NCBI GenBank assembly: GCA_013426185.1
Contig: CP058602.1
Location: 10,231 to 74,230, forward strand
Source of the DNA: Candidatus Woesebacteria bacterium
GTDB lineage: Bacteria; Patescibacteriota; Microgenomatia; UBA8517
Direction of reading: 5' to 3'
Length of the DNA stretch: 64,000 bases
Shown here piece by piece: positions 14,274 through 63,440 of the stretch; within the stretch, counting starts at the first letter, position 1; each line of letters opens with the position of its first letter. A program made the position numbers and the translations under genes. The notes beneath the pieces are model-generated. The model worked only from the letters and a program-made list of their open reading frames with translations. It did no database searches and was not told the DNA's origin.

Positions 14274-15191
14274 ATGGTTAAAAAAGACCGTAAACAGGTC
14301 AAAATATTAGATATTGCCTTGGATAGCACTAACAAGACTCAAGTGCTAAGGGAGGTCAGGGTCAAAATAGCTACTTTTGAGCGTAAAGAACCTAATTATC
14401 GGCCTTTTTATATAGTTACCCCCAATCCTGAGATTGTACTTGAAGCTTTGAAAGATAAAAACTTTGCCTTGATTTTAAATTCTGCCAATTTTACCATTCC
14501 TGATGGCATCGGCCTTTCGCAAGCTGCTTTTTTCCTTTCTCTTCCAGATTATAAATTTTTGCCCCTTAGAATTTTTATTTTACTTTTACAGTGGTTTTAT
14601 ACAGTGTTCTTGACTTGGTTTAAAAAGAAGCGGCTATTTGAAAAGTTAAATATCATCAAAGGCAGAAAACTCTTCACCGATCTTATTTTTTTGGCCAATA
14701 AAAAGGGGTGGAGAGTGGTTTTGGTGGGGAATCTTCAAGGAAGCGCGCAAAAGTCTGCTTCAATCATCAAAAATAGCTATAAGAAAGTCAAAGTTTTTGC
14801 TTTCTCGGGCTCGGCTTTGAATAGGGAAGGTGAGGCTTTGAATCAAGAAGAGAAAAAAGCTGAAAAAGAACTTCTTGATTCTATCAACAAGATTTCTCCA
14901 CATTTGGTTTTTGTTGGCTTTGGGGCGCCAAAGCAGGAGAAGTGGCTTTATCGCAATTTAGACAGTCTTAAAATCGGCGGAGCAATGGTAGTAGGGGGCA
15001 CTTTTGATTATGTTTCAGGCAAACTGTCCCTTCCGCCGCGTTTTTTGGAGAAACTGGGTCTTGAGTGGTTTTGGCGGCTTTTAGTTGAGCCAAAAAGATG
15101 GCTGCGTATCTTTCGTGCTGTCTTTGTATTCCCGACAAAAGTAATCTCTTTTAAATTGAAAAAGGGTCTTGACAGGGTTGCTAGCTTTTGA
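14274..15191 (+). CDS. WecB/TagA/CpsF-family glycosyltransferase (N-acetylmannosaminyl-transferase-like)
   Basis: 'FYIVTPNPEIV', 'FTIPDGIGL' and 'VFVGFGAPKQEKW' conserved blocks of the family. Confidence 0.7.
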   Translation: MVKKDRKQVKILDIALDSTNKTQVLREVRVKIATFERKEPNYRPFYIVTPNPEIVLEALKDKNFALILNSANFTIPDGIGLSQAAFFLSLPDYKFLPLRIFILLLQWFYTVFLTWFKKKRLFEKLNIIKGRKLFTDLIFLANKKGWRVVLVGNLQGSAQKSASIIKNSYKKVKVFAFSGSALNREGEALNQEEKKAEKELLDSINKISPHLVFVGFGAPKQEKWLYRNLDSLKIGGAMVVGGTFDYVSGKLSLPPRFLEKLGLEWFWRLLVEPKRWLRIFRAVFVFPTKVISFKLKKGLDRVASF

Positions 15192-42209: not shown

Positions 42210-42230
42210 AGTACAAATTACAATATACAA

Positions 42231-42610
42231 ATTCCAAGCTCCAAATTACAATATACAAACAATATACAAATTCTAAATTCTAATTTCTAATTTCTAAATC
42301 CTAAACAAATCGCAAATCACAAATTAACTTAAAACTTAAAAGTCAAAAGTCAAAACTTGACAATTAGATTATAGAATCTAGATTAGAGATTATAGAATTA
42401 AATCACAAATTACAATATACAAATTACAAATTCTAATTTCTAAATCCTAAATTCTAAACAATTTTACAATCATCGAATTTTCCAATCACAAACAGATTAG
42501 GAATACTGAATTTAGTATTATGAATTATGTATTATGCAGGAAAATGCATTGTTCCCATAATACATAATACAAGATACTAGATACAATCTTTTGCTTTCTA
42601 CTTACTACGT
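42231..42610. repeat. Modular low-complexity repeat array, inverted orientation
   Basis: Reverse-complement modules in reverse order (caaattccaa, gattatag, cataatac, ctactttctac). Confidence 0.85.
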
Positions 42611-42632
42611 TCTACTTTCTACTGTTGTTAGT

Positions 42633-45687: not shown

Positions 45688-47706
45688 CTATTTTATCTCT
45701 TCTAGCTGGTTTTTGGCAAACTCGTCGTTGGGGTTTATTTTTTCAAGAATGTATTTTAGCTCTTCTTTGGCTTTTTCTTTTTCTCCTAGTTTATTGTAGG
45801 CGGTCGATAGAGCAAGCCTTCCGTCACGGTAGTTACTTTTAAGCTCAACGCTTTTTTCAAGCACTTCTTTTGCTTTTTGGGGATTATTTGATCTTAGATA
45901 AATCAGGCCAAGATTATAATAAACTTTAGGGTCAGTTGGAGCAAATTGAGAAAGATCAAGTAGCGAATTTTCGGCGTCGGTGGTAAGTTTGGGGTCAATA
46001 ATTGAAAGCTGTATTAATATGGAAGAGTATGTTTTTCTAAAAAAGATGTTGTTTGGCGAAAGGTTAACGGCTTCTTTAATTTGGTCAAGAGCTTTGTTTG
46101 CTAACTCTTCTGTTTGATTTTGGTTATTTTTATTAAAGGCAGAAATTGCAAGGCCAAGAGTGGTTTTGGCAAGTTCGTCGAGATAAACCGGCTCTTGTGG
46201 TTTTAGTTTTATGGCTTTATTTAAAGAGTCTTGAGCAAAAGCGTAATTTTTGCTTCTGTTGTAATCTTTGGCGCGGCTATAGTAAAAATCAGCCAGCCAG
46301 TAGTTGATGAGTTTATAAATTATAAAAATAGAAATGAAACCTAAAATTAAAAGGCTTATTTTTGCTTTAGTGTCAAAATAATATTTTTCTTCTTTTTCTT
46401 CGGCTTGATTTTTGAAAGAGAAGGCAATAGCCGGATAAATAAAGAATAGAAAACTAGTGACAGCAACCGAGAAGCCAAAGATATTGGTTGTAAGAAAGCC
46501 AATATATCCTGAAAGAAGGCCGAGGGTTATAAACTTTTCTTTTTCATCTTTTGTTTTTTTAATTTCTCTTGCCATCATTAAAATTGATGAAAGAATAAGG
46601 ATAAGATAGCTAAAAAGACCCAAAATGCCTGTATTGGCAAGATAATTTAGGTATTCGTTGTGAGCTTTGTTGTAAACAAAATCCCATTCAGATGTAAGAT
46701 TGTGTTCGGCTGGCTTGTATTTGAAATAGGAAAGGGCAAATGTTTCAGGTCCTGTGCCAAAGACAGGATAATCTTTAAAGACTTTAATGGCTCCTTTCCA
46801 GACGATTTTTCTAATCTCTCCTGATTCAGTTCCTCCTGTTTCAAGAACAGTGCCTGCTTGAGGAGGGGTAGAATTTTTATTTTTTGAAATCAGCTCTTTT
46901 AGACTGGGAGTCCATGGAGTTCCAATTATTAAAGTAATAAAGATAATTGAAAGATTGAAGAGAAGGGCTTGCTTTTTGATTTTAGCTTTGTTGATAAGAA
47001 AAGAAATCAGCCAAAATAAAATATTTGCTGCAACAAATCCCAAAAGTCCCGAGCGCGATTTAGTAAAAAGAAGAACCAGAAAGTAAATTAAGGCAAGTAT
47101 AAAAAACCTTCTTTGCGATCTCTTTTTATCAAGATAAAAAGTGTAAGCAAGGCTTGTTGGAAAGATAAAAACAATAAAGGCGGAAAGCCAATTGGGTTGG
47201 CCGAGAGTTGAAAAAACGCGATTTTGGACATCTTGCACCCAGATGTTTTTATCAATGCCTGCTTTTTGAAGGATGGCATAAAGACAAACAATAACGCTTG
47301 AGGCAAAGGTGATTTTTATAAAATCAATTACTTTTTCCTTTTTAATGTTATTGACAAAGGCAAAGTAAAGGAGCGTGTAGGAAATAATTGGAAGAAGTCC
47401 GCCGTTAAAGCGGGAGTAATAGCCAAAAATAGACATATGCCTGTCAATTGAAAAGTAGGTTGAGATGAGGTTTGCAAGAAGAAAAGTGATAAGAGGCAAA
47501 TCAAGCGGAGTTTTTTTGAAAGTTAGTTTTTGGCTGATGATAATTTTAGCAAGCCAAAAAGAGGTGATTATTGTGGTTAAAATGTAGAGAAAAACGATTT
47601 TATTGAATTCAAAAAGTTCGGATGTGACAGGAATGACAATAAGGGGCAAGAGAAAAAAAAGGAGAGAGAAGGAAAAATATATCGCTTTTTCTATTTTTTG
47701 TATCAC
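45688..47706 (-). CDS. Polytopic membrane protein with C-terminal TPR repeats (O-antigen ligase/Wzy-like family)
   Basis: ~10 TM helices then TPR-like repeats ('YYNLGLIYLRSNNPQKAKEVLEKSVELKSN'). Confidence 0.55.
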   Translation of the reverse strand: MIQKIEKAIYFSFSLLFFLLPLIVIPVTSELFEFNKIVFLYILTTIITSFWLAKIIISQKLTFKKTPLDLPLITFLLANLISTYFSIDRHMSIFGYYSRFNGGLLPIISYTLLYFAFVNNIKKEKVIDFIKITFASSVIVCLYAILQKAGIDKNIWVQDVQNRVFSTLGQPNWLSAFIVFIFPTSLAYTFYLDKKRSQRRFFILALIYFLVLLFTKSRSGLLGFVAANILFWLISFLINKAKIKKQALLFNLSIIFITLIIGTPWTPSLKELISKNKNSTPPQAGTVLETGGTESGEIRKIVWKGAIKVFKDYPVFGTGPETFALSYFKYKPAEHNLTSEWDFVYNKAHNEYLNYLANTGILGLFSYLILILSSILMMAREIKKTKDEKEKFITLGLLSGYIGFLTTNIFGFSVAVTSFLFFIYPAIAFSFKNQAEEKEEKYYFDTKAKISLLILGFISIFIIYKLINYWLADFYYSRAKDYNRSKNYAFAQDSLNKAIKLKPQEPVYLDELAKTTLGLAISAFNKNNQNQTEELANKALDQIKEAVNLSPNNIFFRKTYSSILIQLSIIDPKLTTDAENSLLDLSQFAPTDPKVYYNLGLIYLRSNNPQKAKEVLEKSVELKSNYRDGRLALSTAYNKLGEKEKAKEELKYILEKINPNDEFAKNQLEEIK

Positions 47707-48037
47707 AGATTAATTTTAGGTTTATTGAGGCTTTAAGGCAAGGGGAAAGCAGTCGGAGTTGGTCCTCGCTTAGAGCAAGGTTGGCCAAAGTTAGTCTCCA
47801 CCTGCGGCGGAGTTAGTCGAAGCTGGCAGGAAGCTAGTATTTAGTATTTTGTATTATGTATTATGCAGGAAATACAAGTAGGAAGTAGAAAGTAGTAAGT
47901 AGAAAGCAAAATTCATAAATCTTAAATCTTAAATCCTAAATCTAGATTCTATAATCTGTTTGTAATTTGGATCTTGGAATTTGTAATTTTAACTTTTGTA
48001 ATCCGTGACAAGGACGGACCTTGTCAACAAAACTAAA
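47707..48037. repeat. Modular low-complexity repeat array ending in the palindrome tgacaaggacggaccttgtca (48006-48026)
   Basis: Direct reading. Confidence 0.85.
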
Positions 48038-49249
48038 TTAGAGGGGAATGTTTGTGTATGCCACAACATGTGGTAGGCTAGAAAATGGAGCGGTAAGTAT
48101 TTTATCGTTTAAGAGATAGAACGGATTTCTTTTTTGATTTGCTTTGATGAAGCAAAGATTGAAGGTTTTGGCATATAGTTTTTCTATATCATTTTGATTG
48201 GGGTTTTTGTAAAGTTCCGTTTCAAAAATAGTTGTCCAAAAGGCAATTAGTGCTTTAGCTAAACTTGCTCTAAAAAGGTCTTCTGATAGATCTTTTAGAA
48301 GGGAGAATTCTATGTTTATTGCATCTTTCTCCTGAAAATATCTTCCTTTTTCAAGAGGATCTAGTCCATTTTGAAAATTTTTTAAAAAGCTGATTACGTG
48401 GCTCATCTCGTGTATAAGACCCATTATCTGATGGCGGAAGTTAGCATAGTTATCAATGGTTATTAAGAAGTTGTCTTTTGTCTTGTCGTATTTTATTGAT
48501 GTGGATTCGCCTGTTTTAATTTTTACTTTGGATTTAAAAGCAGAAAAGGATGGATATTTTTGGAACACGAAGTCAAGTGCTTCTTTTTGTTTTTCAAAGG
48601 GGAATTTTGCGAGCCTGCAAACAAAACAGGGTAGATTGTATTCTGAATAAAACCAAAAAGGCAAGTTGCCAGTATTAGGAAAAAGTTCATTATATTTTTT
48701 GATTGTTTTATATTTTTCGCTTTTAAATCTTTGAAAATCTTTTTTTGGTATTTTAAATTGCTTGAGAGAAAATTCTAATGGTGACATTTTTTCCTTCTTA
48801 AGAAAATATTCTATGCGAGTTGAAATTAGCCTGATGAATTTACTCTTAGCTTCTTCAATGGGGAAATTGAGGTCTTTCCATAATTTTTCCCTTTTGGCGG
48901 GAGAAGTATTGTTTATCTCTTGGTTGATTCTATAGAGGAGAGGAATAGGAAGTAGTGAGAAATATTCGGATATGGCTTGAAAATATGGTTCTGATGGAAA
49001 TTTTCTGCGATCAATTTTTATTATAGTTTTCCGAGCCAGATCTTTTTCTAGATTTTCCCTAACCCAATAGGTAATATAAGTTTCTTTACATGATGTTTTT
49101 GGCGATTCTAGTCTTGTGTAGTTTTTTTCTGCCTCCTTGATACCTGCCTTTGCTGTTTGTTTAATATTATCTAATGAAACATCTAAGCCTGCTTTTCGAT
49201 ATTTCATCTGATATTCTATTAATATTTTTTCTATTTTTTGTGAGAGCAT
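48038..49249 (-). CDS. Hypothetical protein with HExxH motif (possible zinc metallopeptidase)
   Basis: 'GLIHEMSHVISF'; otherwise unassigned. Confidence 0.4.
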   Translation of the reverse strand: MLSQKIEKILIEYQMKYRKAGLDVSLDNIKQTAKAGIKEAEKNYTRLESPKTSCKETYITYWVRENLEKDLARKTIIKIDRRKFPSEPYFQAISEYFSLLPIPLLYRINQEINNTSPAKREKLWKDLNFPIEEAKSKFIRLISTRIEYFLKKEKMSPLEFSLKQFKIPKKDFQRFKSEKYKTIKKYNELFPNTGNLPFWFYSEYNLPCFVCRLAKFPFEKQKEALDFVFQKYPSFSAFKSKVKIKTGESTSIKYDKTKDNFLITIDNYANFRHQIMGLIHEMSHVISFLKNFQNGLDPLEKGRYFQEKDAINIEFSLLKDLSEDLFRASLAKALIAFWTTIFETELYKNPNQNDIEKLYAKTFNLCFIKANQKRNPFYLLNDKILTAPFSSLPHVVAYTNIPL

Positions 49250-49346
49250 CTTTTTAATTTTATCAGTTTCGGCAGAGGCAAGACAAAAATTAATTGAATT
49301 GTTGAATAGACTGAATATTTTGCAGTAAATTAAAGGGAAGAAAAGC

Positions 49347-49769
49347 TCATTCTTTGAGATATTCTTCGAAGAGCTGATGAATTAATTGGTCAATTTCCCG
49401 AGATGACTTTTGTTTAGAAGTACCTGCGGTAATATCGTCGAGTGGGCAAACTGTATCTAATATTTGTTCTAATTCTGGACCTTCTATATCTGAAAGACAT
49501 AGCTCATAGATTCTTGCCCCTAAACTAATTGTAAACTTTTGATCTACCTCACCCTTAAAATAACTTTCAAAATTGTCGCGGAGGAGTTTTTTAACTTCTG
49601 TTGCTGGAATAACCTCTCCTTTTTCTAGTCTGTGTTTGATATTAAGAGTCTTCCCGAGGTAGTTATCTATTTTTTCCCAATACTTATCCCGTTTTTCAGA
49701 AGGTAGCTCATTATTTTTTTGTTGTTTTTTCACTTTCTCCATTTTAATTTTATTTGATTGATTTGGCAT
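49347..49769 (-). CDS. Hypothetical protein
   Basis: ORF only. Confidence 0.35.
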   Translation of the reverse strand: MPNQSNKIKMEKVKKQQKNNELPSEKRDKYWEKIDNYLGKTLNIKHRLEKGEVIPATEVKKLLRDNFESYFKGEVDQKFTISLGARIYELCLSDIEGPELEQILDTVCPLDDITAGTSKQKSSREIDQLIHQLFEEYLKE

Positions 49770-49952
49770 TTCAAGACTGGTTTTTGAAAATAAAAGGAGG
49801 AATGGAGGCTAAAGCCTTCATCTGGTAGGTACAGACTTTACTCCTTTACGGAGCCGTTCCTCGTAAAACCTAATTATTTAGTTTTGCCCAATTTCTATCA
49901 GCTAAGAGTTACACTATTTTTCCAGAGGGAAACCAGTGCGATAAACACTTTC

Positions 49953-50876
49953 TTACCCTTCTAAGGTTCTAAGGCATTTATTAAGTGAGTTTCTCAATGC
50001 TTCTTGTTCGCCTTGAGTAGATAAATCTTTGAGCGGTTCTGTGGCTTTTATTATTTTTCTATCTTGAACAAAAACTGCCCAGTTGCGAACATCAAGTAGA
50101 GCTTTTGTTGCGATTGAGGCTGAAATTTTGTTGTCAAAATACTCTTTAATAATTCTTTTCAATATTCTATCCGATTTTTCGGGGAATACAGCGATATCGG
50201 CTAAGGTTTGGATTAGGGAACTATAGTTTTCTTCTGTTTCTAGAAACCAGTTGGTGGTTAGATCGGAGACTCTTTCTAATATGTGAATGAAATATTTCTC
50301 TTCTTTATTTTTGGTTGTTGGTTGTTGAAGCTTGTTAATACTGGAAACCGCCATTCTGGAAAAAGCAGCGATTTCTCCGAGGCTGGGTTTCTTTTTAGCC
50401 CTTGTAAGCGATACTAGCAAATCCTTTATTTCTGATATGCTCTTACTTTTTGAGACCTGATATTGGAGTTTATTAATGACTGTCTTTCTAATATGGTATT
50501 CTTTTGGCAGAGAGGATTTGTAGTAGTTAATCAGTTTTTCTTCTAAGTCTAGAATGTCTTTATCTTTCAGACTAAAAAGTTTTTCTTCCTCTAGTTCGTC
50601 TAAATCTAGTATTATCGATGCTAAAGCACCTTCTCTGTCAAGGAGATCAGAAAAGTTGTTCAATTGGAATCCTAGCTCGCTGATAATGTAAACAAAAGTT
50701 GGAAAATCTATCTTGCCTGTTAGGAAATCGTAAGTTGCCAGAAGAAAAATTCTTTTAGTAATGAGAGGACTTATTTTGTAGGATAAAAACTTTTTAAGAT
50801 AAGAATATAGTTGAGAATAGCTAAGGAGTTGGGTTTTGTTTTTAAATATTTTAATGTTATTTTTGAAATCCCTCAT
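49953..50876 (-). CDS. Hypothetical protein, member of a local paralog family sharing a 'DFLTGK(I/L)D...SxISxEL' block
   Basis: 'LLATYDFLTGKIDFPTFVYIISELGF' resembles 'LMALRDFFKGKIDLHSLSSISCELYY' (51591-52007) and 'LKTIDDFLTGDLSLDEFSAISNYLW' (52214-52435). Confidence 0.4.
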   Translation of the reverse strand: MRDFKNNIKIFKNKTQLLSYSQLYSYLKKFLSYKISPLITKRIFLLATYDFLTGKIDFPTFVYIISELGFQLNNFSDLLDREGALASIILDLDELEEEKLFSLKDKDILDLEEKLINYYKSSLPKEYHIRKTVINKLQYQVSKSKSISEIKDLLVSLTRAKKKPSLGEIAAFSRMAVSSINKLQQPTTKNKEEKYFIHILERVSDLTTNWFLETEENYSSLIQTLADIAVFPEKSDRILKRIIKEYFDNKISASIATKALLDVRNWAVFVQDRKIIKATEPLKDLSTQGEQEALRNSLNKCLRTLEG

Positions 50877-51009
50877 AACCTTTTAAGATTTTAGATCAAA
50901 AAGGAAAAATAGGAAAGAGGGCTGGGCTTTGGCCTACCATGGTGGCAACATGGGTATCTCCTAAGTGACAACCCTCTTTCCTTGCCACTTGTTTAGTTGG
51001 TGACATGCC

Positions 51010-51246
51010 TTATTTTAATGGATGACGGCCCGGATCCCCTTTGGGAACATTCTGGTCTGTTAAGTGAATATTGGGTTCTCCCCTTAAGTTAAAGCTTACT
51101 CGTATGCCTTTATCATCAGGACCAGTTTGCCCCAACAGTGTAAGATGACCGGTGTTAGGATCAAGTATATTTATCTGTCTCCACCAGTCATCTCCCATTA
51201 TTAGAGAATCTCGTTGAGAGTTAAACAAGTCGAATAACTTAGTCAT
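51010..51246 (-). CDS. Small protein (78 aa), paralog of 53413-53652, behind a conserved ~200-nt leader
   Basis: GGAGGTG Shine-Dalgarno, then ATG (MTKLF...). The tracked ORF begins 4 codons upstream (MRCEM) in both paralogs. Confidence 0.45.
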   Translation of the reverse strand: MTKLFDLFNSQRDSLIMGDDWWRQINILDPNTGHLTLLGQTGPDDKGIRVSFNLRGEPNIHLTDQNVPKGDPGRHPLK

Positions 51247-51258
51247 CTCACACCTCAC

Positions 51259-51480
51259 TTGTTAGAAATTCTTGACCGATGATGTGATTCGAGCTCTCCA
51301 GGCTCTCAACTTAGAATTACACCTCCAAAACTGAATTTAAATGTGCTTAGGATTTTTTCCCCGCTGTTGAGGTAAATCCTTATTTTTCTTTTAGCAAAAA
51401 AGGATAAAAGTCAAGTTATGGGGTGATTGATGGTGGTGGACAAGGTCCGACACTGTCCTGACAAGGACGGACCTTGTCAA
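51259..51480 (-). promoter_or_regulatory. Conserved 5' leader / candidate cis-regulatory RNA, copy 1. Contains TTGACT -35-like box and an aggatt..aatcct hairpin; begins with the tgacaaggacggaccttgtca palindrome
   Basis: About 80% identical by eye to 53665-53880 over ~190 nt. Hairpin stem conserved while loop sequence differs. Confidence 0.4.
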
Positions 51481-51590
51481 TTACCCTTTAAGGGGTCTGG
51501 TTTATAAAAGGATATATGGCTAGAAAGTAATAAGGAATAGGGAAATTCTTAAGTCTAATTTATTAATTTCTTATCCTAGACGGTTAGAAA

Positions 51591-52007
51591 TTATAAAATA
51601 TTGTTTTTGTGTTTCTCGTAGTATTCTTTAAGATTCTGTAAATGCTTTTTGTAAATATCTTTATTGTGAGCGTCTTTTTCTTTATTTAGCTGGTAATAGA
51701 AAATCTCAGTTGCGCTAAATAAAGCTCTTGCTAACTCTTTTTCAAAATTAGCATCTATTTCAGATGGTTTGCCAATCTCGTAGTATAATTCACAACTGAT
51801 TGATGATAGCGAATGTAAGTCAATTTTCCCTTTAAAAAAGTCTCTTAAGGCCATTAGAAATATGCTTTTGATGTGCTCTTCTTTTATGAGATTGCCTTTT
51901 TTTACAACCTCCTTTAAGTATTTGTAGAAAGTTTCGTAAAAGCCTTCACTATAACATATTAAGTCTTTTTCGTCTTGTGCTTGAGATTTGAGATTAATTT
52001 TTGTCAT
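51591..52007 (-). CDS. Hypothetical protein (DFLTGK-block paralog family)
   Basis: See 49953-50876. Confidence 0.4.
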   Translation of the reverse strand: MTKINLKSQAQDEKDLICYSEGFYETFYKYLKEVVKKGNLIKEEHIKSIFLMALRDFFKGKIDLHSLSSISCELYYEIGKPSEIDANFEKELARALFSATEIFYYQLNKEKDAHNKDIYKKHLQNLKEYYEKHKNNIL

Positions 52008-52213
52008 TTTTCTGTTTTATTGGAGAATAACCATTTTATTTTACACCTTTTACTTAAAGTTACTTAAAAAGAGGAAGTGGAATTTAATTCTTGCTTGGCG
52101 GCATTCAAGCTTACCCTTTCAAGGATCTGATTTATAAATTTTTAATTCCTCAATTTGTAGATCTTGAATTTCGGCCCTAAATCAAATAGCCTGTAATTGA
52201 TACGGTATAATAA

Positions 52214-52435
52214 GTGGCATATTCCATGACCAAGTCTGAAGAAACCAAGTTTTCAATCAAAGTGCCTTTGCCTAAAAAGAAGGTGGAGAAGTATCTACAC
52301 ACTTTAAGGCTCTCCTCAGTAAGGGAAGCTGGAGAGAGCAAGTTAAAGGCTTTGTTCCTTAAAACAATTGACGATTTTTTAACAGGTGATCTTTCTCTTG
52401 ATGAATTTTCTGCTATCTCTAATTATTTGTGGTAG
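52214..52435 (+). CDS. Short ORF carrying the same DFLTG block. Possibly a gene fragment
   Basis: 'LKTIDDFLTGDLSLDEFSAISNYLW'. Confidence 0.25.
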   Translation: MAYSMTKSEETKFSIKVPLPKKKVEKYLHTLRLSSVREAGESKLKALFLKTIDDFLTGDLSLDEFSAISNYLW

Positions 52436-52703
52436 GAAAGTGGAGTTGTGTTAGGAAAAGAAAAGAGTAGCAAAGAATTTTATAGCCTTTTACAAATGAG
52501 TGGGGAATTAAGCTTTTATATACGTGGTAGGACTAAAGAAGTACGAAAATCTGCTTTGAGGGTTTTAGATCTCATCTTTGATTATTACGGCAAATGTTCT
52601 TAATTGAGGAAAACTGTTGTGATTTACTCTAGATGAAAGAATAAAAGTCAAATTAAGATGTGTTCGAAAATTATGATTCTTTTTCTTGATAAGAAATATA
52701 TTA

Positions 52704-53282
52704 CTAACGCCTTAAGATCTTTTCTGAAGAACTTCTGAGATATTTTATTATGTTTTTGAATTCTTCAAGGTGGTACCTACTTTTTCTACCTTTTTCGTTG
52801 TAGTAGTTTAGATCTGCTCCTTCAAGAACAGCAGAATTTAACGGTTCGGGCATATTTTCTATAAACCCTTTGCTCCAGAAAAGAGTTTCAAAATAGTCTG
52901 ATATTTCTGCATGATCAACCTCCTTGTTATCAAGCTTCTCTAGTAATTTGAGGATGAGCCTTGCCGTCTCCTCTTCAGCTTTTTTGGTGTTTTTACTTCT
53001 AAGTGCCTCTAGGATAGGTTTGATTTCTTTTTTTATTTTTGCCATTCCCCTTTTTATGTTTTTTGGTTTTTTTGCTTGAATAGTAATTTCTGGTTGGGGA
53101 ACTAAGGAGAAATTAACTTGTGTTATCTCTTTTCCGAGAAGAACTTTACGGAGTTGGGGAAGATGCAGGATTGTCTTTATGATTTCTTTTTTTCCTAGAT
53201 CTTCATCTTTAAATTTTGACACGTCGACAGTAACTACATCATATTTCTTTCTGTTGATCTTTAAGGTAAATTTTTTCTTCAT
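52704..53282 (-). CDS. Hypothetical protein
   Basis: ORF only. Confidence 0.35.
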   Translation of the reverse strand: MKKKFTLKINRKKYDVVTVDVSKFKDEDLGKKEIIKTILHLPQLRKVLLGKEITQVNFSLVPQPEITIQAKKPKNIKRGMAKIKKEIKPILEALRSKNTKKAEEETARLILKLLEKLDNKEVDHAEISDYFETLFWSKGFIENMPEPLNSAVLEGADLNYYNEKGRKSRYHLEEFKNIIKYLRSSSEKILRR

Positions 53283-53412
53283 AATTCTATTTTAGTAGAT
53301 TTTGAGAAAAAAGGGGAAGAATTGAGAGTATTGCTCTCTACACGGTAGCTTTGTGGTTATAGCTTAACTGCACAATTCTTCCCCTTACTCAGCTACTTGC
53401 ATTGGTTTTGAC

Positions 53413-53652
53413 CTATCGATCGAATGGCCCTTTGATGGTGCCTCTTAGAAGATCAATGGAGATTCCCAGGTCTTGGTAAACGCCATGATAGTCAATTACC
53501 CGACCATTCTTGTCAAAGGTAATCGAAGTTCTTGCGTTGAATTCTTTGTTGAATTCTGTTATCTTTGTGGTCCCATCTTGAGAACCCCATATGTTAGCAC
53601 CACCTTTTGATCCCCGGATCTCAATATCTGGTTTTCCCTTAGGGTCAGACAT
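53413..53652 (-). CDS. Small protein (79 aa), paralog of 51010-51246
   Basis: Same GGAGGTG-ATG context. Sequence blocks appear circularly permuted relative to the paralog. Confidence 0.45.
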   Translation of the reverse strand: MSDPKGKPDIEIRGSKGGANIWGSQDGTTKITEFNKEFNARTSITFDKNGRVIDYHGVYQDLGISIDLLRGTIKGPFDR

Positions 53653-53664
53653 TTCACACCTCAC

Positions 53665-53880
53665 TTTTTGAATTCTGATTTGACGACCGATTTAGAGCTT
53701 TCCAGGCTCTCAACTAGAATTACACCTCCAAAACTGAATTTTTGAACGTGCTAGGATTTTCCTTCGCTTTTGAAGTGAATCCTTATTTTTCTTTTAGCAA
53801 AAAAGAGGATAAAAGTCAAGTTATTGGGGTGATTGATGGTGGTGGAATGGTCTGACCCTGTCCTGACAAGAAGGGTTTTT
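53665..53880 (-). promoter_or_regulatory. Conserved 5' leader / candidate cis-regulatory RNA, copy 2
   Basis: Aligned by eye to 51259-51480. Confidence 0.4.
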
Positions 53881-53887
53881 TGGGGGG

Positions 53888-55189
53888 TCAGAGTAAAATT
53901 TGAGCTAATTCATTTGCTTTTTCTTGGCTTATGTCTCCAAGGAAATTTACATTCATTTTTTCAGATTTAAATATTTCTTGCGCCATCTTTTTTATTTCCT
54001 CCATCTTTACTTTACTTCTTTCTTTTGAATAATCCTCAGGACTCCAGATTTCTCCATAGTCCATCAGCTCTCCAATCAGATAGCCTGATATAGATTCGGG
54101 CGTCTCAAAGCTCATATACAACAATAGGTTAAGATATTTCTTTATTCTTGAAAATTCTTCCTTTTTTACACCATTTTCTTTTATATCTTCAATTACTGAT
54201 TTTATTTTTCTAAAAGTTTTCTCTAGATTATTTATATCTGTTGATCCATAAATACTAAGGTAGCCTAGGTAGGGGAAAAGTGAAGTGTAACTACCACAAT
54301 CATATGTTAGACCCTCGGTTTCTCTTAGTGCGAGCCACAATCTTGAGAGATGACCTTTGCCTAATATGTTGTTTAAGATATTGAGAACAATCTCGTGGTG
54401 TCTTTCTACTTCACACCAGCCGAAGGCTGGAAAGTTGATATTGAAATTGATTTGTTTACTTTCATTTTTTTGTACATAGACTGTAAACTTTGAATATCCA
54501 TCCTCTTGATATTTAGGGAAAACAGTTTTCTTACCTTTTCTTTCCTTACCGAAAGTCCTTTTGATTTTGCTTGTCACTTTTTTCTCATCAAATTTTCCAA
54601 TTACCGAGATTACCATGTTGCTTGGATTTAAAAATCTCTTCTTCCAGAGAATAATGTCTTTGTCTTGAATAGATAGAATGTGCTTGATATCACCGGTTAC
54701 AGGCAACTGGTATTGCGGTATATCTTTAAAACGATTTTGCCTTATTTTTTGATTAAAGACCCAAATAGGGTCTGTGTAATTATCATTGCATTCATTGATT
54801 ATGATACTTTTTTCTTTTTCAAAATCTTTTTTAGTGAAACTTGACCTAAACACGACTTGATATAGCAAATCCACGGCTTTGTCTGCGTTAATATAAGGCG
54901 TTTTTATCCAGAATAAGGTTCCTGCTAGAGTTGTTTTCGCGTTTGTACCTCCTCCTATCTCATATATTCTTTTAAATATTTCCTGATTTGTTTTGAATTT
55001 TTCTGTTGAAGAGAAAGCAAGGTGTTCCAAGAAATGAGCGATGCCTATATGCTTTTCGTCCTTGGCATAATAATTTCCGGATTTGATTGCAGAGGCTATA
55101 TAAATAGATTGTATTTCTTTGATAGGATAAAGTATTAAGGTTAATCCGTTTTCTAAAGTTATGATCCTGTACGCATTTTTTATTTTCAT
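53888..55189 (-). CDS. M16-family zinc peptidase (second copy in window)
   Basis: 'HFLEHLAFSSTEKF' inverted zinc motif; ~430 aa. Confidence 0.75.
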   Translation of the reverse strand: MKIKNAYRIITLENGLTLILYPIKEIQSIYIASAIKSGNYYAKDEKHIGIAHFLEHLAFSSTEKFKTNQEIFKRIYEIGGGTNAKTTLAGTLFWIKTPYINADKAVDLLYQVVFRSSFTKKDFEKEKSIIINECNDNYTDPIWVFNQKIRQNRFKDIPQYQLPVTGDIKHILSIQDKDIILWKKRFLNPSNMVISVIGKFDEKKVTSKIKRTFGKERKGKKTVFPKYQEDGYSKFTVYVQKNESKQINFNINFPAFGWCEVERHHEIVLNILNNILGKGHLSRLWLALRETEGLTYDCGSYTSLFPYLGYLSIYGSTDINNLEKTFRKIKSVIEDIKENGVKKEEFSRIKKYLNLLLYMSFETPESISGYLIGELMDYGEIWSPEDYSKERSKVKMEEIKKMAQEIFKSEKMNVNFLGDISQEKANELAQILL

Positions 55190-55330
55190 ATTTGTATTTT
55201 ATCATTTGATAGTGATTATGAGAGCGAATGGACAATGTCCAACCCTGTCCTGACAAGGACGGACCTTGTCAGTTGGACGGCTAAGTTATAAAGTAGGAAA
55301 AGGATGTTGTTTAGTTTTTATTTTTAATCA

Positions 55331-56347
55331 ATGTCTAATTTTAAGATTCAACCAATGATATCTTATTGGGCTAATTGTTTTTTCTTCATTTCCAACCTCT
55401 CGGAGTGGCATTGGAGCACTAGGAAGTTTTATAACAGTTATTGGTTGTCGAGAACAGGTAAATTAACTTCAACTGAAAGCAAAGCCCTTGCTAAAGCTAA
55501 GGCTATTTTTGCTAAATATGGCTTTGGTGATAGATATTGGGGTTTGGTCTTTTTGAGGGAGCCTGAAGAGGAAGTTTGGGATAAAGCTAAAAGATTTTTT
55601 GAACCACAAGAACTTAAGAGTTTAGAGGAAATATATAAAGTTTTTAAACCTCGTTTTGAGGCAATCTGGAAAACTGACCGCGAAAATTTATTGGCTTGGC
55701 GTGATCGCTTTAATGATATAAGGGATAAATTGTGTCCCGATGCCTTGCTTTCTGATCTTGATGCTCTCTTTTTTGGTACTGAAAGAAAAAGAAAGCATAA
55801 ATCTGTAAAAGTAGTGTTTTTAATAAGCTTTCCTAATAAATTTGCTGGCGGCGGTGGCAACTTGGGACCAGGAGTAGTTACCCTAGAGCTTTCTCAGACA
55901 CCTTTAGAATATGTCCGTCCTGTTGTTCTGACTATGTGGCATGAGATAGCTCATTCTCTTTGGATGATAAATGGATATGAGAATATGGTGGAGAAGTTTG
56001 TTAAAGAGAAGGATGAAATGCTTAATTTTGATGATAGCCCTTCATTGAGGGTTTTTGTTAACGAAGCGGTCGCCGAGTCGCTTTTGCCTCATGGGTATTT
56101 GGCTCAAAAGCATTTTAATTTTCCATCTGATGAATATTTTTCAAAGCAGGAAAAGATTGTTCTAAGAAAAGAAAACAACGTGCTGGAGAAATGGAGGTTG
56201 TATTCTGCTTCTCGACTTGTGCCTTTGGCTAGAAAGTATGTTGAGGAGGGGAAGGTATTAGATAGCGCTTTTCTTGATAAAGTATACGAGCTTTTTGTTG
56301 AAGCAAGAGATCTAATTGGTATAGGTCAACTTAAAGGCCAAAATTAG
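55331..56347 (+). CDS. Hypothetical protein with HExxH motif
   Basis: 'LTMWHEIAHSLW'. Confidence 0.4.
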   Translation: MSNFKIQPMISYWANCFFFISNLSEWHWSTRKFYNSYWLSRTGKLTSTESKALAKAKAIFAKYGFGDRYWGLVFLREPEEEVWDKAKRFFEPQELKSLEEIYKVFKPRFEAIWKTDRENLLAWRDRFNDIRDKLCPDALLSDLDALFFGTERKRKHKSVKVVFLISFPNKFAGGGGNLGPGVVTLELSQTPLEYVRPVVLTMWHEIAHSLWMINGYENMVEKFVKEKDEMLNFDDSPSLRVFVNEAVAESLLPHGYLAQKHFNFPSDEYFSKQEKIVLRKENNVLEKWRLYSASRLVPLARKYVEEGKVLDSAFLDKVYELFVEARDLIGIGQLKGQN

Positions 56348-56389: not shown

Positions 56390-56830
56390 ACTACAAATAC
56401 ATCGATGTATTTATAGTTGAAGAAGTTGAAAGTTAATTTGCTAGATTTTAATTGCGTAAGATGACAAGGACGGACCTTGTCAAGCACCCTTTAAAGGCCT
56501 GGCCTTTAAAGGGTGGTCGAGGATGGCCGGAGCTGGTAGGAAGCTAGTATTTAGTATCTTGTATTATGTATTATGCAGGAAATACAAGTAGGAAGGAGAA
56601 AGTAGTAAGTAGAAAGCAAAAATAAAAAGTTCAAAATTAAAAGTTCAAAGTTGGAATTTACTAGTTTGTAATTTGGAAAATTGGATAATTGTAGAATTGT
56701 TTAGAATTTAGGATTTAGAAATTAGAATTTGGAATTTGTATATTGGAATTTGTATATTGTATATTGTTTGTAATTTGTGATTTGTTTATTGGAATTTGTA
56801 ATTTTATTCTTTGTCCTATGTTCTTTGTTC
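56390..56830. repeat. Palindrome cluster (double palindrome; tgacaaggacggaccttgtca; caccctttaaaggcctggcctttaaagggtg) followed by a modular low-complexity array
   Basis: Direct reading. Confidence 0.85.
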
Positions 56831-62730: not shown

Positions 62731-63440
62731 CTTCAAACAGTGGGTAAAGACGGACTTCGGACTTCAGTTATCGGCTGTCGGACATCGGACATCGGATATC
62801 GGATATCAGTTATCGGCTGTCGGATATCGGCTGTCGGAATTCAGTCGAAGTTAGTCGGAAGAAAATATCTGCATTATGAAAGATCCAAGTAGAAAGTAGT
62901 AAGTAGAAAGTAGAAAGCAAAATTAATAAATAGTTAAAAGTTCAAAGTTGAAAGTTAAAAGAATTCGGATTTCAGCTATCAGTTGTCAGCTGTCGGAGTT
63001 GTTTGCTATCTTAATTCATAAATCTTAAATCCTAAATCAAAATTCTATAATCTATAATCCATAATCAAAAATCTATAATCTAATCATAAAGTTTTGACTT
63101 TTGATTTTTAATTTTTAATTTAATTTGTGATTTGGAATTTGCCTGCCCTGAATCGAATTTATTCTGGTTCAGGGTTTAGAATTTAGATATTAGAATTTAG
63201 AATTTGGAATTTGTATATTGTTTGTATATTGGAATTTGGAGCTTGGATTTGTAATTTCTAATTTGTGATTTTCCCTTTGTTCTTTGTTCTAACCTAGTAG
63301 GTAAAAAGCAAGGGGTAAAAGGTAAAAGAAATTCAAGTAGAAAGTAGAACGTAGTAAGTAGAAAGCAAAATTCTATAATCTATAATCCAAAATCTATAAT
63401 CTAATTAGAAAGTTTTGACTTTTAACTTCTGCCTCTTGAG
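62731..63440. repeat. Modular low-complexity repeat array, the longest tandem instance (module order repeated roughly twice)
   Basis: Direct reading. Confidence 0.85.

Follow-up and report, generated by a model that had tools for sequence, protein, structure and literature searches.

In operons for peptides that ribosomes make and that are modified after translation (RiPPs), such as nisA-nisB, a precursor gene is followed by a leaky terminator and then by the maturase genes, and in Borrelia the upstream homology box of the erp, ospE, ospF and elp genes places a similar promoter and 5' region ahead of unrelated coding sequences, with recombination giving rise to mosaics. [quoted passage not shown] Features of these systems recur in an island at positions 48,038 to 56,347 of a 64-kb window (contig CP058602.1 of assembly GCA_013426185.1, positions 10,231 to 74,230 of the forward strand; coordinates without a locus handle are those of this window) from the Candidatus Woesebacteria genome Ch104c, a complete, closed 0.83-Mb genome of the 'CPR group' (Candidate Phyla Radiation, CPR) from a 2.8-km-deep aquifer in Western Siberia (PMC7509429). 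The proteins of the island are identical to entries CH104c_0061 to _0072 of this Candidatus Woesebacteria (CPR/Microgenomates) metagenome-assembled genome, and the region is a strain-variable cassette locus in which two small protein genes, A and B, each stand between a shared leader and a structured trailer, next to genes for peptidases and helical orphan proteins. Both elements are interpreted here as RNA brackets with a stabilising and partitioning role, placed around small proteins that resemble precursors and have dedicated peptidases, a reading that is quite possible though short of probable.

For comparison, exact-protein look-ups returned 18 same-species loci and a DNA scan 6 further loci, and the comparison set (handles of the form L001) spans roughly 7–10 lineages. 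As the loci for A and B were fetched by exact protein identity, their protein identity there is given by construction, whereas the nucleotide identity of A and B, and all identity for a third small open reading frame (ORF), C, were not built into the retrieval. Covariation counts reported below come from related sequences, the counts in shuffles are not probabilities, and alignments fitted to a covariance model favour their own structures. Copy numbers of leader, trailer and palindromes refer to the 64-kb window of the 0.83-Mb genome.

The better supported of the two elements is the trailer, a second RNA element of about 105 nt that the preliminary description had missed and that emerged when the DNA 3' of the small ORFs was read in every lineage. 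A pseudoknot is built into its four-way junction: the box CAAAACUGAAUAAGU is followed by a 6–8-nt strand (H1), the 5' strand of helix H2, hairpins H3, H4 and H5, the 3' strand of H2 and a U-rich stretch, and the loop of H4 pairs with H1. Within the window, covariance model R2 has just three matches, each of them on the minus strand. Copy 1 (50902-51003, 75.7 bits) follows A and has GTGGCAA/TTGCCAC as its H1 pseudoknot and GGAAAGAGGG/CCCTCTTTCC as its closing stem, then TATTTTTCCTTTTT; copy 2 (53303-53411, 73.8 bits) follows B, with GTAGCT/AGCTAC at H1, closing stem GGGGAAGAATTG/CAATTCTTCCCC and then TTTTTT; copy 3 (49784-49888, 59 bits, E 3e-10) follows the gene of a 307-aa protein and comprises the box CAAAACTAAATAA, the pseudoknot TTAGGT/TACCTA, the closing stem GAGGAA/TTCCTC and the U-tract CTTTTATTTTC. 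In a plain MAFFT alignment of 11 sequences, H1 and H4 were 97.5% paired (74% in shuffles, 27–47% in slid controls), with compensatory changes in 9 of 11 pairs, and in a model-fitted alignment of 21 distinct sequences, H2, H3 and H4 were 92% paired compared with 65%, 17 of 18 pairs being compensatory. Minimum-energy folds gave a cloverleaf followed by the U-tract. In all three copies the closing stem lies directly 5' of the U-tract, as does the G+C-rich stem of an intrinsic terminator, but the stem encloses three hairpins instead of forming a simple one, and the pseudoknot reaches into its 5' flank; a consensus terminator scan did not list the trailer sites.

On the 5' side of the small genes, the regions upstream of A (51247-51465) and B (53653-53870) align with 85% mean column identity, and with 83% identity by blastn over 227 nt, which bears out the earlier proposal of a conserved leader ahead of both small ORFs (about 215–230 nt, 83–85% identical). 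The sequence elements that had been noted in it are likewise present in both copies, namely a TTGACT box, an AGGATT..AATCCT hairpin (P1) and two GAGGTG(T) elements, of which the upstream one is SD-like and the downstream one is the true SD. In leader A (51247-51414, minus strand) these are TTGACT at 51409-51414, TGCTAAAAG at 51388-51396, P1 at 51349-51380, the core GCACATTTAAATTCAGTTTTGG, a non-initiating GGAGGTG at 51320-51326, a small hairpin GAGC..GCTC at 51291-51305 and the true SD at 51251-51256; in leader B (53653-53819, minus strand) they are TTGACT at 53814-53819, TGCTAAAAG at 53791-53799, P1 at 53753-53783, GGAGGTG at 53723-53729 and the true SD at 53657-53662. TTGACT followed after 15 or 17 nt by TGCTAAAAG was called as a putative promoter by eye, and a consensus scan did not list it. 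The T-tract in the spacer (51397-51402; 53800-53807) has between 6 and 12 T, depending on leader copy and strain (loci L001-L028), which gives putative promoter spacers of about 15–21 nt; this variation could modulate promoter strength or could be homopolymer assembly noise.

Covariance model R1, built on the 5' module of the leader, matched the window exactly twice (51286-51388 and 53690-53791, both on the minus strand), and a scan of genome contigs with the 19-mer AAATTCAGTTTTGGAGGTG gave just 4 chance matches. Sister strains and species have the leader ahead of six or more small-protein families, and leader homologues are spread over at least six other lineages (L029, L030/31/32, L033, L034, L038, L039, L040), with a small ORF downstream every time. 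Neither leader nor trailer matches a catalogued family: at the gathering threshold of Rfam 15 the whole window contained only 6 tRNAs, and at E ≤ 1 both leaders, all three trailers and the long leaders of L029 returned chance-level rows only, so that the covariance-model search suggested for the leader matched no known riboswitch or other RNA family.

P1 had been described as a conserved stem with a variable loop. The hairpin itself stands, and across species the pattern is the reverse: the loop is a hexaloop of sequence AANNGC (AGAAGC in L040), and the stem sequence is wholly different between lineages and covaries. Eight P1 variants with different stems fold alike (z −3.2 to −5.6), and on a model-fitted alignment P1 was 96% paired as against 85% in shuffles, with compensatory changes in 5 of 8 pairs; in the short leader of the window this 5' hairpin is the only well-supported structure. 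Conserved in sequence are a core (GCACnUUnAAAnUUCAGUUUUGG), GGAGG and AGCYUGGRARGCU. GGAGG is retained in all leader copies of all lineages, and GGAGG(UG) has no conserved start codon at working distance: on reading of the alignments, a TTG stands 10 nt after the first GGAGGTG in one allelic form only and is missing from the other, and in long leaders an ATG directly abuts GGAGG without a spacer, in a frame that is not conserved. Judged from these alignments, the first GGAGGTG apparently does not direct translation initiation. A TTG-started frame of 15–19 codons after it was considered as an upstream ORF and rejected, as only one of the allelic forms has it. Changes in one leader type had suggested a second compensatory helix (AATTCT/AGAATT versus AGATCT/AGATCT); it is broken by the recombinant leaders of L003, L009, L010, L026 and L027 and was not retained.

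The leaders of relatives are longer, with about 215 nt in L039 and about 430–490 nt in L029 (5494-5955 and 6925-7384), L030 (163-595 and 3170-3645), L034 (220-648), L038 (108-539) and L040 (5540-6001). Additional parts of the long forms are a 3' domain and a rod-like helix (about 55 bp), and the L039 leader (14810-15014, minus strand) is an intermediate form without the rod. RNAalifold predicted 120 pairs for the long leaders, 46 of them compensatory, compared with 24±3 in shuffles and 7–15 in slid controls. Because relatives carry these longer leaders with extra domains, the leader family is modular, and the window holds its minimal form. The source annotation calls an ORF of 86 aa, very basic, inside the purine-rich rod strand (L030:234-494), which was treated as spurious because its frame is not conserved in L029, where stops occur. 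In a more distant, GC-richer lineage, a P1-like hairpin (CACCTC-AATAGC-GAGGTG), which shares the hexaloop, is located at L035:7420-7450 and L036:2300-2330 upstream of an E-like small ORF (see below), and apart from it the leader model detects no leader in these two loci.

The leader resembles the STAB-SD of Bacillus thuringiensis cry3A in that a sequence of SD type, complementary to the 3' end of 16S rRNA, lies far upstream of the real SD and apparently initiates no translation. A hairpin near the predicted 5' end goes with it, and 5'-terminal stem-loops likewise belong to the 5' mRNA stabilisers of Gram-positive bacteria. Unlike STAB-SD, the leader has an AANNGC hexaloop, a 22-nt core and forms of 215–490 nt with extra covarying domains, it is repeated ahead of many unrelated genes, and stabilisation is in this case a prediction.

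The genes that are bracketed by these elements are genuine. Small protein A (78 aa; 51010-51246, minus strand) has a 76-aa orthologue in another species (L039) that is 75% identical, with a ratio of nonsynonymous to synonymous changes per site (pN/pS) of 0.17 and synonymous sites nearly saturated; next after it in L039 comes an orthologue of the 307-aa protein (51% identity). Small protein B (79 aa; 53413-53652, minus strand) has orthologues of 82, 78 and 69% identity and a pN/pS of 0.15 (against L040). Both ORFs are under purifying selection. The suggestion that A and B share blocks in swapped order, by circular permutation or as repeat proteins, was not upheld: BLASTP gave no match, Smith-Waterman alignment scored z=−0.2, and Smith-Waterman on the doubled sequence with shuffles, which would reveal a permuted relationship, gave z=0.5 and p=0.25. 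Other small ORFs behind the leader in other strains are C (87 aa), B' (77 aa), D/D' (78/70 aa) and E (76 aa); pairwise tests grouped only {C, E} and {D, D'}, and for two further pairs, {A, G_L029} and {B', F_L033}, the signals were weak. The E/C family (..GVSPKAIDLAKKLGLDP...GGNRGxTGGCGQDP) has a single invariant Cys near the C terminus and is the most widely conserved partner of the PepF-like peptidase gene across species (L029:7617-7787, L034:876-1024, L035:7749-8007, plus E-family ORFs upstream of them). Searches of Pfam/NCBIfam and of PDB sequences with the small proteins returned nothing usable.

Two HExxH proteins and an M16 peptidase had been recognised in the island, and all three were recovered. 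The 403-aa HExxH protein (HEMSH; 48038-49249, minus strand), the last gene of cassette A, had no Pfam, NCBIfam or PDB sequence match. Its AlphaFold2 model (predicted local distance difference test score 88.9) was matched by Foldseek against PDB to oligoendopeptidase F (2h1n/3sks) and Pz-peptidase A (3ahm) with probability 1.0, query-normalised template modelling scores of 0.47–0.52 and E ~2e-3, followed by M32, ACE and neurolysin. H280, E281, H284 and E307, i.e., the HExxH motif plus a downstream Glu in the place of the third zinc ligand, are invariant in 13–15 members of its family, and the best distant relative (P0171) scored 25.7 bits against Pfam PF01432, for which the cut-off is 27. According to the predicted fold, the protein is a truncated M3/PepF-like (neurolysin-fold) metallopeptidase. 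It shares the HExxH motif and the invariant downstream Glu with the fold of M3B (oligoendopeptidase F, Pz-peptidase A), neurolysin, ACE and M32, but at ~400 aa versus ~565–600 it is ~160–200 residues shorter, and its family is confined to CPR-like metagenome proteins and is here always found beside a leader-driven small ORF. Word-indexed search yielded 12 clusters of the family and full HMMER search 207 representatives. Paralogues of 407/431 aa follow ORF C and of 412/420 aa follow E, and the 403-aa type follows A and D'. The M16 (insulinase/pitrilysin-type) peptidase (433 aa; 53888-55189, minus strand) has both Pfam domains (PF00675, 70.8 bits, 1.5e-19; PF05193, 115.5 bits, 3.3e-33) and HFLEH as its HxxEH motif. 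The second HExxH protein (338 aa, HEIAH; 55331-56347, plus strand) has no assigned family; it was tried as a short member of the PepF-like family and rejected, since only the HExxH helix aligns.

The DFLTGK-block proteins proposed as paralogues are indeed related (307-aa versus 138-aa protein, E=1e-6; 138-aa versus 73-aa, E=1e-5; single comparisons), and the similarity also reaches a 140-aa protein and a 139-aa relative. Members in the island are the 307-aa protein with an N-terminal DFLTGK domain (49953-50876, minus strand), the divergent 140-aa helical protein (LLRDNFESYFKGEVD; 49347-49769, minus strand), the 138-aa protein (DFFKGKIDL; 51591-52007, minus strand), which is predicted to be a five-helix bundle, and an interrupted 125-aa gene (52226-52603, plus strand). 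The ORF at 52214-52435, which had been counted as a separate member, has the similarity and is not a gene of its own: it is the front part of the 125-aa gene, which carries a premature stop (W70*) here and is intact in the 99.96%-identical GCA_020725745.1 and other strains. The family comprises ~14 clusters and has no Pfam model; Pfam/NCBIfam and PDB sequence searches returned nothing usable, and Foldseek with the model (a five-helix bundle of moderate confidence in which a helix-loop-helix is present) found no significant fold match. EF-hand-like profile matches over the DF.TGK.D..F loop were weak (E 0.06–0.17), and the acidic ligand positions of the canonical EF-hand (DxDxDGxIxxxE) are F/L/T in the DFLTGK sequences. 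A 192-aa protein (52704-53282, minus strand) is the downstream partner of B.

The gene content of the locus differs between strains. Sister strains possess a third leader with the 87-aa ORF C and a 407/431-aa peptidase gene, a cassette that is absent from the window, and the difference begins exactly at the end of a 21-nt palindrome, pal1 (TGACAAGGACGGACCTTGTCA), at 48006-48026. In L001 and L004 the module of M16 gene, leader B, B and 192-aa gene is replaced by a radical S-adenosylmethionine (rSAM)/SPASM gene and a 68-aa peptide (L001:7178-8553 and L004:1846-3212, both minus strand; syntenic with ~52600-55300 of the window). The rSAM/SPASM gene of the sister strains has rSAM and SPASM Pfam matches, and the operon there runs from rSAM/SPASM gene through the 68-aa precursor-like peptide to the 338-aa HExxH gene, which comes last. 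The peptide (MSLLLEALRHEVEES...HSDSGGWSDNWNDGPNHSDSWSDSGWPLKR) contains repeated (H/W)-x-D motifs (HSD, WSD, WND, HSD, WSD). Triceptide precursors are marked by an aromatic-X-X motif (PMC11499958), which these repeats fit, and by its sequence the 68-aa peptide appears to resemble a precursor of the triceptide/cyclophane type; a triceptide-type RiPP cluster (rSAM/SPASM plus precursor) is absent from this window. At the nucleotide level the coding sequence of A is the same in 14 loci, that of B in 11 and that of C in 10. The leaders of those loci exist in 4–5 forms, which are mosaics of two allelic versions per segment and are unlinked to the downstream ORF. Mosaic leaders ahead of invariant coding sequences point to recombination or gene conversion among leader copies. 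The Borrelia box offers the same combination of a shared promoter and 5' region ahead of unrelated genes with mosaicism by recombination, but at this locus most of the shared region is transcribed, the RNA contains a covarying hairpin, and a second element downstream of the ORF is paired with it. Breakpoints of cassette presence and absence lie at pal1 or in the leader, not at the trailers.

Put together, a cassette would begin at the palindrome or palindromes that close the preceding unit and continue with a sigma-70-like promoter, a 5' UTR of ~130 nt, the small protein gene, the ~105-nt structured trailer and then the accessory genes, which encode helical DFLTGK-family proteins plus the truncated M3/PepF-like metallopeptidase, or the neighbouring M16 peptidase. 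The leader would act as a shared expression module in which the 5'-terminal hairpin and the non-initiating GGAGGUG protect and load the mRNA while the true SD drives translation of the small ORF. With its pseudoknot-locked four-way junction and U-tract, the trailer may be both a 3' stabiliser and a leaky or conditional terminator, and the two brackets would then yield abundant small-ORF mRNA and pass only a part of transcription on to the enzyme genes behind, a stoichiometry characteristic of operons for a precursor peptide and its maturase. The adjacent peptidases would have the small proteins as their substrates or precursors, and the near-identical leaders could serve as DNA homology patches for gain, loss and swap of cassettes while being homogenised by gene conversion. 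Peptide processing is the leading functional guess in view of the peptidase-rich context and the rSAM/precursor cassette of sister strains. RiPP operons are similar in their order of small ORF, stem with U-tract and processing-enzyme genes, in an adjacent peptidase of a family (M16) that RiPP pathways use and in the rSAM/SPASM-plus-precursor cassette at the same locus in sister strains; they differ in that the 'terminator' here is a pseudoknotted four-way junction, that the 70–87-aa small proteins have no recognisable leader and core, and that the window has no modifying enzyme apart from peptidases.

Several observations weigh against such brackets. Transcription start, termination and stability are all predicted. 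The preliminary description had envisaged a structured leader, and compensatory changes uphold this for P1, but the whole short leader is no more stable than shuffled sequence (z −0.6 to −1.95), and P1 of L039 has retained its loop sequence with a degenerate stem. Trailer copy 3 follows the 307-aa gene rather than a small ORF. The small proteins, at 70–87 aa and with no signal peptide, are unlike typical RiPP precursors, the window holds no maturase other than peptidases, and M3-type oligopeptidases normally accept short peptides only. Moreover, a conserved four-way junction, a pseudoknot and the conserved CAAAACUGAAUAAGU box would be superfluous in a plain terminator or stabiliser, as would a conserved hexaloop and core in a plain 5' stabiliser. 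These conserved features suggest a specific binding partner, which the bracket model does not name.

It is for this reason, a specific partner suggested by the conserved hexaloop, the boxes and the pseudoknotted junction, that effector-responsive switches are the main rival to stabilising brackets. Leader, trailer or both would be aptamers, either riboswitches or sites for a regulatory protein: in the leader, GCACAUU could pair either with the upstream GGAGGUGU or with the true SD, which would gate translation, and in the trailer an effector would stabilise the folded pseudoknotted junction, with the result that the terminator stem forms and read-through towards the enzyme genes is controlled. 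Loops and a core that are conserved in sequence next to covarying stems fit this, as do the predicted pairs of the long leaders (120, of which 46 are compensatory versus 24 in shuffles), which include a helix pairing CCUU of the GCACCUUU core with the SD. In minimum-energy folds the partner of GCAC is the first SD-like element for leaders A, B and B' and the true SD for leader C, and the trailer, in which a U-tract comes directly after the closing stem, has the arrangement usual for an expression platform. Against these stand the lack of any Rfam match, the short leader of the window, which is without most of the structured domains of its relatives, and the alternative pairings themselves, which are computed rather than observed; there is also no ligand candidate, as peptidases and orphan proteins, not a metabolic pathway or transporter, lie downstream. 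On balance, such switches are considered rather unlikely. In its fullest form, to which a similarly small chance is given, the idea would make leader and trailer two new effector-responsive RNA classes specific to Woesebacteria/Microgenomates that control processed-peptide production in ultra-small bacteria, with a modular leader (AANNGC hairpin and core, optional ~230-nt rod, optional 3' domain) gating translation and a trailer aptamer, whose closing helix is the terminator stem, gating read-through into the M3-like peptidase genes. Orphan riboswitch candidates and large structured non-coding RNAs resemble the two elements in their conserved blocks and covarying helices, their cis position in UTRs and their narrow range, and differ in that here two different elements bracket one ORF and gene context gives no ligand clue.

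The elements might alternatively act as DNA, with leader, palindromes and trailers as recombination sites of an integron-like or other site-specific cassette machinery (the trailer in the place of attC) and with the covariation reflecting folded single-stranded DNA. The strain-variable cassettes, the breakpoint exactly at pal1, the mosaic leaders ahead of invariant coding sequences and the position of the trailer at the 3' end of ORFs all recall integrons, in which a short variable array likewise carries a structured repeat at ORF 3' ends. Unlike integron cassettes, those of this locus have a promoter of their own, and the trailer, a pseudoknotted four-way junction and not a bulged single hairpin, is not attC-like. 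Gene calls to a distance of ~10 kb on each side include no integrase, recombinase or transposase in any of the strains (the genome farther away was not searched), breakpoints fall at palindromes and leaders rather than trailers, the palindromes are scattered window-wide in ordinary intergenic regions, and promoter and SD signals of the leader are correctly placed, general homologous recombination being sufficient for the mosaics; a DNA-level machinery is hence judged improbable. Less probable still is the defence or effector role that had been suggested for the cassettes, in which small proteins acting as toxins or effectors would be paired with DFLTGK proteins or peptidases as immunity or activating partners, in the manner of toxin-antitoxin or effector-immunity systems. 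A strain-variable island with many orphan paralogues would suit it, and the best fold match of DFLTGK is a colicin D immunity protein, albeit a non-significant one (E 3.1, probability 0.51). Yet no toxin domains were found, the small proteins are under purifying and not diversifying selection across species, and PADLOC and PHROGs gave no significant match among the island proteins, the sole rows being the 140-aa protein against PDC-S32 (E 0.0026, 15.5 bits) and B against phrog_9068 (E 0.0036).

CPR bacteria have tiny genomes with very few recognised regulatory RNAs and many orphan genes. To these the locus adds several uncatalogued elements: small protein genes have, at either end, one of two structured RNA motifs that are well supported and that Rfam lacks, a peptidase family of truncated M3-like type has ~200 representative clusters and no Pfam model, a helical protein family has ~14 clusters, and the shared leader is clearly a hotspot at which strains exchange cassettes. 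Should the RNAs be regulatory, they would offer an entry point to gene control in an uncultivated phylum; should the peptidases have the small proteins as substrates, this would point to a peptide-signal or effector system in episymbiotic bacteria.

The island is flanked by a Wzy_C/TPR gene (45688-47706) and by mreB/PBP2 (56811 onward), and its GC content of ~33–37% is the same as that of the remaining window. The palindrome pal1, which had been taken for the start of the leader, turned out to be a dispersed repeat: 9 copies of 21 nt (starting at 1163, 9298, 9573, 20199, 48006, 51459, 55251, 56462 and 60720) compare with 0 expected in the 64-kb window, and all are intergenic. Its asymmetric centre ACGGA is always on the plus strand, irrespective of the orientation of neighbouring genes; GC skew is positive across the entire window. 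A related palindrome (GGACAGGGTCGGACCCTGTCC) has ~7 more copies in the window. Tandem palindromes are present upstream of leader A (pal2-like plus pal1, 51438-51479) and between the M16 and 338-aa genes (55230-55271, near the breakpoint of the rSAM exchange), and leader B retains merely a remnant of the related second palindrome. A 110-nt direct repeat (47818-47927/56528-56637) was considered as an att-like island boundary and dismissed, as it belongs to a dispersed low-complexity repeat family. Low-complexity AT-rich intergenic repeats (e.g., tagtatttagtattttgtattatgtattatgcaggaaatacaagtaggaagtagaaagtag) occur in at least 10 places in the window (47760-48005, 56483-56815, ~10497, 18597, 30786, 42212-42623, 62870-63403 and others), and the amount of repeated intergenic DNA is striking for a 0.83-Mb genome.

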